64,000 nt of DNA. Source: a virus. The notes beneath the pieces are model-generated. The model saw nothing but the letters and a program-made list of their open reading frames with translations, was not told where the DNA came from and made no database searches. Shown piece by piece: positions 19,008-61,613 of this stretch. A program made the translations under genes and the position numbers. The number at the start of each line of letters is the position of its first letter. Positions within the stretch are counted from its first letter, which is position 1. The stretch is taken from the IMG/VR virus record IMGVR_UViG_3300029566_000004; one strand, given 5' to 3'.

Positions 19008-19481
19008 TTAAGACCAATCAAAGCCAACATTGTTCTTTACATATGCAGCACCTATACAGATAGCGTCACTTTCATCTTCAGATACTTTTTTATTATAGTG
19101 ATTTAAGACATATTGCTATGCGTTTTTTTTCTATATTCCACGCTCTTTTCCTTTAATGCCAAGTACTGAACGCCAATGCGCGCAAGTATAAATTATATAA
19201 TTTTTACCGAATAGTTCAACAGCTAATTCTTCTAATACTCCAAGAACTTTGCCTAAAATTTTATAAGTTTGTGGATCTTGCTATAACTATATATCTTCTA
19301 ATATCATAAATTCTATTTGATACTATTGGCATAACTATTGTACTGACTATCGTAAAATCTAAAGACGCGTACCCAAATGCTCATTAGTCAATTTAATAGT
19401 ACCACTTGCAATTAATTTATCTCCATCAAAAATACTATATCCTGTTACATGACTTGCCTAATCGAGTGCAAGGATTCTCAA
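19008..19481 (-). CDS. RuvC-like Holliday junction resolvase (157 aa) with nine in-frame TAG
   Basis: N terminus (M)RILALD(TAG)ASHVTGYSIFDG. Central ILEDI(TAG)L(TAG)QDPQTYKILGKVLGVL. C-terminal DESDAICIGAAY. Putative TTG start overlaps the dUTPase TGA (TTGA). Ends at TAA 19008-19010. Absent from the ORF track because TAG fragments it. Confidence 0.7.
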
Positions 19482-20020
19482 TGACTAGACCCAAAGCCCC
19501 CGATACGCTCCTTCTCGGCAACGTCATCTTCGGTCTTTATATATTTTTTAATTATTCCTTGCCCAATATAATCACCCTTTTGGATGATAATAGGAATTGG
19601 CGAGAAATTAATTAATTGGAAAAAAATTTCCCCCTCATTATCAGGATTGTTATAATAGTCAGCATCCACAATGCCGACTGCATTAGCCATTACAAGCCAA
19701 TGTTTATGAGGGAGAGAGCTACGAGCCATGATTTCAAGATATTCATCATCAGCTAACTTCACTTTCATTCCAGTAGACACTAATACAGGACGAGCATCTG
19801 CGGATTTTGTTAAGGTAGCCATTTGTGCCATGGTTAATTCAGGAGCGGCGATAGGGTTGCGATCCCATTCATGTTTCATGTCATATACCAAGCGTTCATA
19901 TGGAGGGATAATTTTCTCTTCTGCTGCTTGAAAATCATAACCGGCCGAACATTTAGTTGCCCGCGCGGGTAAAATCAAATTAGCATTATCAAAACGACTT
20001 ACAACTTCAAATTTTGCCAT
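19478..20020 (-). CDS. dut: dUTP pyrophosphatase (trimeric dUTPase)
   Basis: MAKFEVV start at 20020 after AGGAGAG (the track start 20146 is an upstream extension). Motifs SAGYDF, VGIVDADY and C-terminal GGFGSS. TGA stop. No TAG. Confidence 0.85.
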   Translation of the reverse strand: MAKFEVVSRFDNANLILPARATKCSAGYDFQAAEEKIIPPYERLVYDMKHEWDRNPIAAPELTMAQMATLTKSADARPVLVSTGMKVKLADDEYLEIMARSSLPHKHWLVMANAVGIVDADYYNNPDNEGEIFFQLINFSPIPIIIQKGDYIGQGIIKKYIKTEDDVAEKERIGGFGSSH

Positions 20021-20039
20021 AATATACTCTCCTAAATTA

Positions 20040-20297
20040 TCAAAAGTTGGGTTCATTACCATAAGAATAAGAAATAGTTGTAATACCATCAGGTTCTTTT
20101 TCATCATTGAATAAACGATTAAGTGTAACACGATACCAAGTATCAATTATTTCTCCTTTAGCTTTGCGTTCACGATATTCACAATTGTACTTAATAAGGT
20201 CACCTTTTCCATCTGCTTTTGCGGCCTCTATTAATTGTTTGGCAGCGTCTTCGTTAGGAACTCGATATATTTCTTGCGTTTTTAATAAATAATTCAT
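20040..20297 (-). CDS. Hypothetical protein (85 aa)
   Basis: Intact track ORF in operon context; RBS-like AAGGAG upstream. Confidence 0.5.
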   Translation of the reverse strand: MNYLLKTQEIYRVPNEDAAKQLIEAAKADGKGDLIKYNCEYRERKAKGEIIDTWYRVTLNRLFNDEKEPDGITTISYSYGNEPNF

Positions 20298-20306
20298 ATT
20301 AACTCC

Positions 20307-20570
20307 TTAAATAATTTCAATGTGCAGAGGAGGATGCCCTGCATAATATTCTTTACTGATGGCGAGTGCGTCACCAGCAATTTTGCTTGCTAACTCTCGA
20401 GGAGCAGCAACTACGATTGTATCACAATGATAAGTATAATAGAAAGCACAAAGTATTGTGCCGAGATCATATATCTTACTATATGCGATTAATGTTGGAT
20501 GCTCATTATTATCAACTAAATAAATAGCCTACATATTAGAACCAATTTGTACTTCAGTTGTTATTTTCAT
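20307..20570 (-). CDS. Hypothetical protein (87 aa) with one in-frame TAG
   Basis: ATG 20570 overlaps the upstream TAA (TAATG). TAG at codon 14 (20529-20531). Ends at TAA 20307-20309. Without read-through, 270 nt would be non-coding in a packed operon. Confidence 0.5.
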
Positions 20571-21094
20571 TATGCCACCCCATTTATAATACCTTGTTTG
20601 TAATCAAAGAAAACATAGCAATAAGTACCTTCATCATTTGTAATCCAGATTTCAGCCGTCCAAGTATCTTCATTTACAGTAATATCTTTAATTTCACCTA
20701 GATTTTCAATAACTTCCATAAAGATATCACTTAATTCTTCATTACTATAATCATCATGATGGAAAATAGTAATGTAACGACGTTCCCAGCATATAAGAGC
20801 CCAATAATTTTGTTCAGGCATACCCGGATCCATAGTTGCGCCAAACATACGATAAATATCTGTCTGTGCCTTGCGCAACTGTTCATCTGTCATTGGTTTT
20901 AATTGTGCAAAAATACTAGAATTTAAATCTGCTAAAGTAATTGTGAACTCACCGCCATCCAATTTTACTGGTTCCCAACTACCATTTTTACATTGATACA
21001 TTTTCTTATCTTCTTCCACAAGCGCATATTCATTTTCCATGTTCTCACGATATGGAAGAGCATCTAATATTTTTTTTGTTTTAATATTTAACAT
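20570..21094 (-). CDS. Hypothetical protein (174 aa)
   Basis: Intact track ORF; AAGGGAG upstream of the ATG. Confidence 0.55.
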   Translation of the reverse strand: MLNIKTKKILDALPYRENMENEYALVEEDKKMYQCKNGSWEPVKLDGGEFTITLADLNSSIFAQLKPMTDEQLRKAQTDIYRMFGATMDPGMPEQNYWALICWERRYITIFHHDDYSNEELSDIFMEVIENLGEIKDITVNEDTWTAEIWITNDEGTYCYVFFDYKQGIINGVA

Positions 21095-21122
21095 ATATTT
21101 ACTCCCTTACTATTCTATATAT

Positions 21123-21131
21123 ATTATACCA
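21123..21131 (-). promoter_or_regulatory. Extended -10 promoter element (TGgTATAAT) followed by ATATATAGAA
   Basis: Minus strand reads TGGTATAATATATATAGAATAG. Same -10 and downstream motif as the other early promoters; the -35 is weak. Confidence 0.35.
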
Positions 21132-59783: not shown

Positions 59784-59784
59784 T

Positions 59785-60627
59785 TTATACCTCTAAGAAA
59801 CTTTTAAGTTTATTACTTCTTATAGGATTACGCAGTTTAGTCAATGCTCGCTCTTCAATCCGACGAATCCATTCTCGACTATAACCAAGTATTGTACCCA
59901 CTTCTTCAAGCGATCTTTGAGAATGCCCATCTATGCCAAAACGCAATTTAATTACTTCACGCTCTTTTTCAGGAAGGGTATCTAAAACGGTTGAAACCAT
60001 GGTCTTTAATTCAATAGAATAAATAGCATCAATAGGATCAACAGAATTTTCATCTGCAATTAAATCTCCAATGGTTGTTTCATCTTCATCAGTAAGAATA
60101 GTATTAGTTGAAATAGGTTCTATAAAAAACGAAGTAATTTCTTCTACTTCTTTTGAAGTCAATCCCATTGCTTTTGCAATTTGATGCTTGGTTGGCTCAT
60201 GACCAAGAGCTTGACGCAATGCTTCTGTGGTTTTACGAATTTTATTATAAGTCTCTTGAACATTAGCGGGAATGCGTGCAGTGCGATTCTGATTAACAAT
60301 TTCACGTCTAATCGCTTGTTTAATCCAATAAGTAGCATAAGTTGAAAATTTATTCGTAGAAGTCAAATCAAATTTTTCAATTGCTGGAATAAGTCCTATA
60401 CTACCGATAGAAATAAGATCATCATTATCAAGCCCAGAGCATGTATAACGTCCAGCAATAGATTTAACAAGACGCATATTATGCATCATCAATTCATTAC
60501 GTGCTTCAATGTCGCCAGTTTGAGCGCGCTTAAGTAATTCGCGTTCCTCTTCAAATGTTAACAAGTCATAACTGTTCAGTTTAGCACGATAAGCATGTGA
60601 ACTATTGATGTCATTAATTGTACTCAT
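59785..60627 (-). CDS. Sigma-70 family RNA polymerase sigma factor
   Basis: Region 2 (NMRLVKSIAGRY..DDLISIGSIGLIPAIEKFD..FSTYATYWIKQAIRREI), region 3, and region 4 (EREVIKLRFGI..SLEEVG..SREWIRRIEERALTKLR). Confidence 0.85.
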   Translation of the reverse strand: MSTINDINSSHAYRAKLNSYDLLTFEEERELLKRAQTGDIEARNELMMHNMRLVKSIAGRYTCSGLDNDDLISIGSIGLIPAIEKFDLTSTNKFSTYATYWIKQAIRREIVNQNRTARIPANVQETYNKIRKTTEALRQALGHEPTKHQIAKAMGLTSKEVEEITSFFIEPISTNTILTDEDETTIGDLIADENSVDPIDAIYSIELKTMVSTVLDTLPEKEREVIKLRFGIDGHSQRSLEEVGTILGYSREWIRRIEERALTKLRNPIRSNKLKSFLEV

Positions 60628-60674
60628 TGACTTCCCCCTTATTTATCTTTATCTTTCTTTGATTTTCTATATAT

Positions 60675-60703
60675 ATTTTATCATATTTTTTTTTAAAAAT
60701 CAA
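60675..60703 (-). promoter_or_regulatory. Early promoter (TTGATT-N17-TAAAAT-ATATATAGAAAA) upstream of the sigma factor operon
   Basis: -35 at 60698-60703, -10 at 60675-60680. Confidence 0.55.
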
Positions 60704-60726
60704 AAAAGGTATATACACTAGTCTTT

Positions 60727-60763
60727 TATATATATATATATATATATATATATCTATATATAT
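60727..60763. repeat. (TA)n dinucleotide microsatellite, about 13 uninterrupted units plus a second short run
   Basis: TATATATATATATATATATATATATA TC TATATATAT between two operons. Confidence 0.9.
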
Positions 60764-60775
60764 GTCGTATAGTTG

Positions 60776-61613
60776 TCATGTACAGAGCATACATGGAGCA
60801 AGATTACGCCCAGTATTTAATATCTGCGTTTTATTATATTCACGCCAACGTTTAGCAATATTTTCAATATTTTCTATATCATAATAGAAATACTCAAAAT
60901 GCAGATCTTCAATACGATCAATGTGATAATGACCCATAAGCCAAGCATATCTAATTTTGATTTTATGGCGTAATTCCTCGAGCCATTTTTCCATAGTAGT
61001 ATCAACTTCACTTTGTTCAATAAAGCTAAGGAATTTATCGAAGGGGCGCATAGTAAAAGGTGCAGTATGAGACATTACAAAATCAAATTCTGGAGAAGTT
61101 TCAAATAGCAGCTCTGCGTCTTTCATCTCTTCTGGAGTTAATTGCTCATCAGAGAACCAACCACTTATTTTTGGATCATTATTTCCCTCGCACAAGCCAG
61201 CTCTTGCGAGACGATACCATTTATCTACAGAATAAGCACCACCAATTATTGCAACACGATAGCCGCCAATCATATATATGCCATAGTCAAGAAAATATCG
61301 AATGCGAGGATATTTTGGCTCCATATAAATCCAATTTTGGACATTCTCGTCATAGATTTTTTGCATCCCATTAATGGATTGCGGTCTTGCTTCATGATTG
61401 CCACGTAGACAGTAATAATAACATTGCGTAGTATTTATAATAATTTCCTTGGTATCTACATCGCGTTTGTTGAGATAATAATTGAATCCTACATCACCCA
61501 ATATGATTACTGCGGCCTCGTCGTCGAACACGCATGGCACACTTTGCATTGCATAAAGGCTACCATGAACATCGCTAACCCATAACAAACCATTTTTTTA
61601 GTTTGTTACTCAT
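60776..61613 (-). CDS. Calcineurin-like metallophosphoesterase; frame change in an A7 run 7 codons after the SD-supported ATG
   Basis: GAAGGTG-N8-ATG 61613 encodes MSNKLKK. The long ORF (track 60776..61588, VSDVHGS, GDVGFN, GNHE) is in the +1 frame from the A7 run at 61593-61599. Confidence 0.65.

Follow-up and report, generated by a model that had tools for sequence, protein, structure and literature searches.

Probable graded selection against the reassigned TAG codon in the early block of a glutamine-recoded phage

Recoded phages and the locus under study

In recoded gut phages, the early genes are compatible with the standard code, the structural and lysis genes are recoded, and a suppressor tRNA is present (Borges et al., bioRxiv 10.1101/2021.08.26.457843). 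The crAss-like phages that use code 15 read TAG as glutamine "mostly in late genes", have suppressor tRNAs, and frequently carry introns with homing endonucleases (Yutin et al. 2021, PMC7886860; Peters et al. 2022, PMC9523058). The same reassignment is found in phAss-1 and the proposed Phassvirus group, with genomes of ~135 kb and tRNA arrays that include tRNA-CUA; 11 orthologous open reading frames (ORFs) differ in TAG status among three of these genomes (Babkin et al. 2023, PMC10607447). Here we describe the distribution of TAG codons in a 64,000-nucleotide stretch of phage DNA, IMG/VR record IMGVR_UViG_3300029566_000004 (the window; the term covers the whole stretch analyzed), and above all in its early/replication block on the minus strand (19478–61549). 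The phage has a genome of ~135 kb, is kin to SPbeta and Enterococcus phage EF1, and uses code 15 (TAG = Gln). The core genes of its early block are free of TAG and a smaller set of genes in the same block carries it; we consider it fairly probable (about 0.6) that this pattern reflects graded purifying selection against TAG, with leakage, in genes that are translated before the code switch.

Like the phages of Borges et al., the window has TAG mostly in late genes, a replication block for which the standard code largely suffices, and a phage tRNA-CUA, the latter seen in a sister contig. Unlike them, it belongs to a different lineage with an SPbeta/EF1-like replication module, and it adds strain-level swaps between TAG and CAG or CAA in DnaB, YorF, and DUF5662, together with a family-by-family gradient within one syntenic module. 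With the crAss-like phages that use code 15 it shares TAG as glutamine, mainly in late genes, a suppressor tRNA, and introns with homing endonucleases; however, it has no crAss-type RNA polymerase block, and instead of a family A or B polymerase it has DnaE and a YorF-YorL module. The window phage and phAss-1 belong to the same broad assemblage, which includes Enterococcus phage EF1, although the G+C content is 44.5% in phAss-1 and 33% in the window. The study of Babkin et al. had neither a gene-by-gene selection analysis nor a strain polymorphism analysis. The order of the SPbeta module is matched in the window: YorF (PF27337), AAA_24, YorH (PF26927), a DnaB-like helicase, a YorJ-type primase, a RecJ-like protein, an SF1 helicase, and a DnaE-type polymerase. 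The module was recognized by tblastn matches to annotated YorJ and YorK homologs and by the precomputed Pfam annotation of a syntenic locus (L285). SPbeta and its cultured relatives use the standard code, whereas in the window several introns interrupt the module and the genome around it is recoded. Overall, the window fits the published model, in which early genes are written in the host code, a suppressor tRNA alters decoding, and late genes are recoded; it leaves that accepted model unchanged.

TAG is absent from the core of the early block

According to GC skew and ORF maps, plus-strand genes occupy positions 1 to ~17.7 kb and resume at ~62 kb, and minus-strand genes run from ~61.6 kb down to 18 kb. 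The recoded late block (1–17692, plus strand), which contains large structural-type ORFs, provided the reference rate. Late plus-strand ORFs between positions 1 and 18320 contain 85 TAG in 5,997 codons (1.42%), and of the Gln-type codons in the late block 32% are TAG; late ORFs of 1,038–1,516 codons have 19–22 TAG apiece and are unbroken only when TAG is read through. In the early block, TAG codons were counted over 35 minus-strand coding segments from 30 genes with curated starts, from 61549 down to 19478. Not a single in-frame TAG was found in their 10,119 codons, against 143 expected at the late rate (the chance of zero is ~2e-63), as an earlier note on this DNA had claimed for about 10,000 early codons. 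The curated minus-strand genes all terminate in TAA or TGA, never in TAG. The 35 segments contain 304 CAA/CAG codons and 309 off-frame TAG triplets; thus, base composition does not account for the absence. Regional mutation bias is excluded as well, because ORFs at or near the late TAG density sit inside or beside TAG-free genes on the same strand. The window therefore offers a clean, quantified case of genome partition in a recoded phage, with 10,119 TAG-free codons set against 1.42% TAG in the late genes.

Functions in the block were assigned from Pfam, including the precomputed annotation of locus L285. In order, the block encodes a metallophosphatase, a sigma-70 factor, an RNase_T exonuclease, a putative RNA ligase, two further phosphatases, and an AAA_33 kinase; then a PIN-PhoH protein, RNase H, topoisomerase subunits B and A, and the NAD-dependent ligase LigA; then the SPbeta-type module from YorF to DnaE; and finally a guanylate kinase, a class II ribonucleotide reductase, and a dUTPase. 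The nrdJ, dnaB, phoH, and phrog_6721 genes are each split by inserts bearing endonuclease or other ORFs.

The claim that recoding in this phage is not confined to late genes also held: genuine in-frame sense TAGs lie within single genes of the early block. The seven genes named in the earlier note have TAG at the positions given there, 11 in ~1,620 codons, yet its list was incomplete, as it lacked three homing-endonuclease ORFs inside introns, with 2, 3, and 4 TAG. The gene-by-gene count that it had proposed was made in the window, and placement within the early block proved non-random: four neighboring genes hold 7 of the 11 TAGs (P ~0.009 in a scan-corrected permutation test), and none falls in the six largest genes of the block (P ~0.002–0.004).

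TAG enters and leaves early genes at different rates

Relatives of the window were retrieved from IMG/VR by protein patterns; among 50,697 phage records, megablast found nothing that matched 8.5 kb of the early block. The recoded relatives include IMG/VR contigs 3300045988_166184, 165556, and 164316, ENA ERZ19243471 NODE_149, and the L008 and L022 lineages. For comparisons based on translation, proteins of TAG-containing genes were entered with Q or X at the TAG positions. Among strains that are 94–99% identical to the window, the TAG-free genes show 57 CAA/CAG differences versus 6 differences between TAG and CAA or CAG (CAR/TAG), the latter at 2 sites. In the late genes of the same strains, the corresponding numbers are 1 and 7. 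The early genes are thus under active selection against TAG, although it is not absolute. TAG does occur in sister strains in genes that are TAG-free in the window, namely at dnaB codon 396 (four assemblies), in phoH (four sister strains), and in recJ (one strain).

The load differs further in other recoded lineages. The recJ gene has 8 TAG in the lineage of loci L006 and L008 and 10 in that of L022, and AAA_24 has 4 and 6, respectively; the primase has 2 TAG in L022, and YorF has none in any of these lineages. The TAG positions of the window in its TAG-bearing genes are not shared with other lineages, the sole exception being one position in a small ORF (41762–41995). Many other relatives share the syntenic module but keep to the standard code, and their copies lack TAG altogether. 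Pooling TAG densities over all relatives fetched, recoded and standard-code together, gives a gradient among gene families. It extends from ligA (0 TAG in 10,934 codons), YorF (0 in 5,300), the RNA ligase (1 in 34,700), and dnaE (13 in 79,689) through intermediate densities in dut, the kinase, phoH, and the SF1 helicase to high densities in recJ, AAA_24, the endonucleases, and ruvC (113 in 9,525).

The sister strains thereby provide a population-level snapshot that published surveys lack, in which essential replication genes gain and lose the reassigned codon through single C-to-T changes. The rate of this entry and exit differs strongly between gene families, which supports avoidance by ongoing, graded selection rather than a fixed boundary between early and late genes.

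TAG as a glutamine codon and the suppressor tRNA

By sequence comparison, TAG is a sense codon for glutamine in this phage, because strains swap it with CAA or CAG and because relatives mostly show glutamine at the TAG sites of late-type genes. Sister strains exchange TAG and CAA at site 21541 in the DUF5662 gene, and TAG and CAG at 19460 in ruvC, at 18154 in orf18011, and at the late sites 14305 and 14545. With TAG read as glutamine, the strain-level swaps are mostly synonymous. The glutamine codon of the DnaB segment SATQLN (35471), presumably a conserved helicase motif, is CAG in the window and TAG in four other assemblies. At the TAG sites of late-type genes in the window, relatives show glutamine in 309 of ~850 aligned cells, and it is by far the commonest residue. 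The earlier note had proposed to check whether homologs have glutamine, or CAA or CAG, at the early TAG sites, and the outcome is mixed: an 85%-identical allele does at YorF codon 8 and two sister strains do at DUF5662 codon 22, but the primase site corresponds to GAA, or glutamate.

An alternation between TGG and TAG was seen at three sites: 41906–41908, in the small ORF at 41762–41995; 32302–32304, in recJ, with TGG in the window and TAG in one sister strain; and 17144–17146, in a late gene, with TGG in the window and TAG in another strain. With TAG as a sense codon, a change from tryptophan to amber becomes a missense change.

No tRNA genes were found in the window, and no genes for release factors or aminoacyl-tRNA synthetases were seen in it. 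An 89-nucleotide suppressor tRNA-CUA is present at 3153–3241 of L327 (IMG/VR 3300045988_164316), a sister contig 94–98% identical to the window, where it belongs to an array of 11 tRNAs, and another is present at 7262–7350 of L288. The tRNA-CUA has U1-A72, G73, and a D-arm like that of the neighboring phage tRNA-Gln. Its extra arm of ~20 nt with conserved CTTCTGAGG, common to two phage lineages, is unusual for a Gln-type tRNA. In the window lineage it was located by anchoring on a neighboring gene of 524 amino acids; when the anticodon arm of the suppressor tRNA from the L008 lineage was used to query the collection, no contig of the window lineage matched.

In contig 164316, the tRNA-CUA lies on the strand of the early block, ~18 kb upstream of it, beside mostly TAG-free genes, with ~9 kb of oppositely oriented tail-fiber-like genes between the tRNA array and the block. 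The L008 lineage also has a tRNA-CUA, and there the equivalent array directly heads the early block. It is plausible that suppression already operates early, as one option of the earlier note had it, given that the tRNA-CUA of the sister contig is upstream of the early block and on the same strand.

The ~9 kb of plus-strand tail-fiber-like genes, which contain TAG, separate the main early block from an upstream module of tRNA and early-type genes (61600–64000 in the window; 1–4900 in L106; 9700–19600 in L327). In the L008 lineage, block and module are contiguous. This arrangement suggests an insertion or inversion between the two in the window lineage.

Two further RNA genes were noted in these arrays. 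At 4390–4463 of L327, in the same array as the tRNA-CUA, a tRNA predicted by ARAGORN has an anticodon of four bases (taaa); the prediction may be a mis-call, or the tRNA may act as a frameshift or ochre-related suppressor. In L288 (IMG/VR 3300021255_000109), a related recoded phage, a gene resembling transfer-messenger RNA (5570–5869), with the tag peptide ARYQYQMAA*, lies in the tRNA array near the tRNA-CUA.

Genes of the early block that carry TAG

The TAG-bearing genes of the early block, all on the minus strand, form a heterogeneous second tier: mainly ORFs of a selfish or accessory kind, whose TAG density equals or falls somewhat short of that in late genes, plus a few core genes. The YorJ-type DNA primase (33736–34839, 367 codons, assigned by homology) has one TAG, at codon 170 (34330–34332). 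Three of the five sister strains also have TAG at this codon and the other two have GAA; nearly all more distant homologs have glutamate.

The gene for a protein like single-stranded DNA-binding protein (SSB; 39327–40280, 317 codons), assigned to PF27337 (YorF) through the precomputed Pfam annotation of locus L285, has TAG at codon 8 (40257–40259). This codon is CAG in an allele that is 85% identical, a single C-to-T change away, and encodes T, K, R, S, or E in more distant ones. The N-terminal motif MKKxMIN-x-xHIEG is kept in all relatives and extends across the TAG, and there is no in-frame start after it. The gene has a strong Shine-Dalgarno sequence (AAAGGAG) and its own sigma-70-like promoter site, TTGAAA-17-TGTTATAAT at 40352–40324, with an extended -10 element; such single strong intergenic promoter-like sites are cited as leads only, since the promoter scan as a whole did not exceed the shuffled expectation (106 versus 103, and 111 versus 98). 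The YorF sequence had no match among PDB chains or in the local copy of Pfam. Its AlphaFold model (predicted local distance difference test score of 79.9) has its best PDB matches in the SSBs of Thermus and Deinococcus, which contain tandem oligonucleotide/oligosaccharide-binding (OB) folds (E = 2.6e-5, probability 1.0, TM-score 0.56 normalized to the target). At the level of the fold, a predicted tandem OB fold, the label "SSB-like" is reasonable.

The gene described in the earlier note as thyX-like (40356–41772; exons 41772–41382 and 40786–40356) does have one exonic TAG, at codon 45 (41638–41640), but the thyX label is not established: the match of the spliced protein to Pfam Thy1 (E = 0.081) scores 13.1 bits against a cut-off of 24.8. 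A sequence search of PDB chains gave no match, and the protein matches phrog_6721 only. Upstream of it lies a small ORF (41762–41995, 77 codons) with TAG at codons 23 (41927–41929) and 30 (41906–41908); the former is also TAG in the L006/L008 lineage, and the latter aligns with a conserved tryptophan in nine relatives. The next gene (42005–43045, 346 codons) encodes a syntenic, T5orf172-like GIY-YIG protein, identified by Pfam and synteny, with a transmembrane segment, a coiled coil, and a C-terminal GIY-YIG domain. It has TAG at codons 36, 46, and 86 (42938–42940, 42908–42910, and 42788–42790), and it carries TAG in every recoded lineage examined, at differing positions.

Closer to the end of the block, the DUF5662 gene (21143–21604, 153 codons, identified with the Pfam profile) has two TAGs, as the earlier note had stated, at codons 22 (21539–21541) and 152 (21149–21151), although the second is only two codons ahead of the TGA stop. 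At codon 22, two sister strains read CAA; TAG is found instead at codons 3 and 77 in two sister strains. Among strains, TAG and CAA are exchanged at three sites. A small ORF (20307–20570, 87 codons) has one TAG, at codon 14 (20529–20531), which is kept in the five sister strains.

The intron-borne ORFs belong to the same tier. They encode GIY-YIG homing endonucleases in the introns of nrdJ (22947–23570, 2 TAG in 207 codons) and dnaB (35802–36482, 3 in 226) and a LAGLIDADG homing endonuclease in the phoH intron (52355–53296, 4 in 313); together they contain 9 TAG in 746 codons (1.2%).

Immediately beyond the TAG-free segments lies the gene for the RuvC resolvase (19008–19481, minus strand), assigned from Pfam, which starts with TTG. 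This start overlaps the TGA stop of dut as TTGA (19478–19481), so the two must lie on a single transcript with opposite TAG loads: the load jumps from 0 in 180 codons of dut to 9 in ~156 codons of ruvC. Codon 8 of ruvC, too, is TAG.

Weighing the explanations

Under graded selection, the sequence of events may be pictured as follows. At the start of infection, the host ribosome would still terminate at UAG; the leftward early/replication block would thus have to be readable in the standard code, and purifying selection would purge TAG from it. This selection would be graded: strongest for genes whose products are needed immediately or in abundance (sigma factor, RNA-repair and phosphatase genes, topoisomerase, ligase, and DnaE) and weaker where the product can come later or at lower yield. 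Selfish and accessory ORFs in the block, such as the three intron endonucleases, the membrane GIY-YIG protein, and the small ORFs, would then gather TAG at near-late density, as would RuvC, which is co-transcribed with dUTPase. The primase, YorF/SSB-like, DUF5662, and phrog_6721 genes would have TAG only as single recent substitutions (e.g., CAG to TAG) that come and go between strains, and these would be tolerated because the phage tRNA-CUA, upstream on the same strand, probably begins to suppress UAG early. We infer in this account when the tRNA is expressed, what each TAG costs, and how TAG load is linked to the time of need.

That the early TAGs are sequencing or assembly errors, or that the ORFs containing them are pairs of separate genes, is very improbable and can be taken as refuted. 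The earlier note had named both as outcomes that would count against it, and neither was found: five IMG/VR contigs with 94–99% identity to the window have these TAGs too, as do up to eight ENA/Logan assemblies of different samples (codon 8 of the SSB-like gene in all five and in eight further assemblies), sister strains have sense codons at the same sites, and homology is continuous across every TAG. A single unbroken alignment covering 98% of the primase pairs it with standard-code primases from phages of Enterococcus, Staphylococcus, and Bacillus; the GIY-YIG protein aligns full-length to TAG-free homologs of standard-code relatives; and the DUF5662 profile match runs across codon 22. Since the primase alignment, the YorF N-terminus, and the DUF5662 profile all cross them, the TAGs do not split independent ORFs. 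A different account attributes the TAG-free state of the early genes to a shared gene pool rather than to timing: modules would be exchanged with standard-code relatives, in which TAG is lethal. The abundance of standard-code relatives with the same syntenic module agrees with this, as does the mosaic nature of these genomes (some genes of L285 are near-identical to their window counterparts, with YorF at 85% identity). However, the standard-code relatives have only ~50–60% amino acid identity, so there was no recent exchange; in these genes, the recoded lineage itself shows frequent CAA/CAG changes and rare TAG changes; and TAG-rich ORFs sit inside TAG-free genes. We regard a shared pool as a doubtful explanation.

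More has to be said for a programmed timer, in which the single TAGs in the primase, the SSB-like gene, and their neighbors are kept so that these "middle" proteins await an active suppressor tRNA, with codon 8 of the SSB-like gene as an on/off gate. Several observations favor such a timer, and some of them also weigh against graded selection. TAG at codon 8 is fixed, being present in all 14 sequences that have this allele (the window and 13 assemblies); if costly, it should have been lost. The gene that carries it combines its own promoter-like site and strong ribosome-binding site with the lack of a downstream in-frame start. The TAGs of the seven genes are 5′-biased (mean relative position 0.28, P ~0.005–0.009, versus 0.53 in late genes), and all 11 lie downstream of a strong intrinsic-terminator-like hairpin (43084–43060, minus strand; 10 pairs, 6 of them G-C, then a T-run) between orf43105 and the GIY-YIG gene, with none in the 5,244 codons upstream; the bias and clustering tests are post hoc and concern 11 codons. 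The four-gene cluster directly behind this terminator, with its 7 TAGs, has no promoter of its own, and the dut/ruvC pair indicates that TAG load can separate genes on one transcript. The 5′ bias and the placement of the terminator hint at organization beyond drift. As for graded selection itself, the pooled loci behind the family gradient are not phylogenetically independent, and the densities were pooled because recoded or standard-code status was assigned by a crude rule that misclassified some short loci; moreover, we infer the timing of tRNA and gene expression from gene order alone. On the other hand, YorF codon 8 is CAG in a close allele and various other residues elsewhere, the primase TAG is missing in two of five sister strains, and the positions in DUF5662 shuffle between strains. 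Sister-strain TAGs in dnaB, phoH, and recJ are not 5′-biased (codons 396 of 509, ~260 of 424, and 378 of 581). Other recoded lineages have a TAG-free YorF, with recJ and AAA_24 loaded instead, and except for the one position in the small ORF, no TAG site is shared between lineages. The proposal that the primase and SSB-like genes are deliberately delayed by their TAGs is not supported, given the GAA and CAG alleles at these two sites. Consequently, we favor graded selection with leakage over a programmed gate, which we consider unlikely. A broader version, to which we also give little weight, is that TAG load acts as a graded translational clock, with the number and 5′ nearness of TAGs sorting co-transcribed genes into at least three appearance times. 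Under it, 5′-proximal single TAGs in replication genes may be selected as cheap gates and not merely tolerated; possible examples are the contrast between dut and ruvC, the cluster of four genes that follows the terminator at 43060, and the TAG at codon 8 of the SSB-like gene. The dut/ruvC pair, YorF codon 8, and primase codon 170 are the candidate sites at which the question of a translational timer can be addressed.

Introns and other features of the block

The nrdJ insert (22817–23750, 934 nt) is precisely absent from three sister strains. The inserts of dnaB (35800–36623) and phoH (52362–53422) are replaced by ~130–150 nt in other strains, and sister strains have extra inserts of ~1 kb in dnaE. 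The phrog_6721 gene contains a group-I-like insert (40787–41381, minus strand) that carries an ORF of 84 amino acids (40959–41213) matching PF21825, a crAss001_48-related family called "Sequestin" in newer annotation. At the junction TACTGGT|AG...ATG|GGAAAG, the 5′ exon ends in T (U) and the insert in G, and the intron-less alleles in contigs 165556 and 164316 read TAC TGG TGG AAA. The TAG at 41380–41382, which appeared as a TAG/TGG polymorphism at 41382, was therefore rejected as a codon: it is formed by T|AG across the 5′ splice site and reflects the presence or absence of the intron. In unspliced phrog_6721 RNA, the reading frame meets this T|AG exactly at the splice site. Searches with Rfam at gathering scores found no family anywhere in the window, so the introns have no covariance-model class.

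Several apparent TAGs at gene starts were likewise set aside. The one at 37714, upstream of dnaB, precedes the real start (MASKY), which overlaps the YorH stop, and those upstream of the rnhA, exonuclease, phoH, dut, and SSB-like starts are all ahead of the true starts. The curated list of minus-strand genes has two gaps. In the first (43392–43697, ~300 nt, between ligA and orf43105), a gene of 63 amino acids is called in related loci; the second (60642–60776, ~130 nt) precedes the sigma gene and contains many TATATA repeats.

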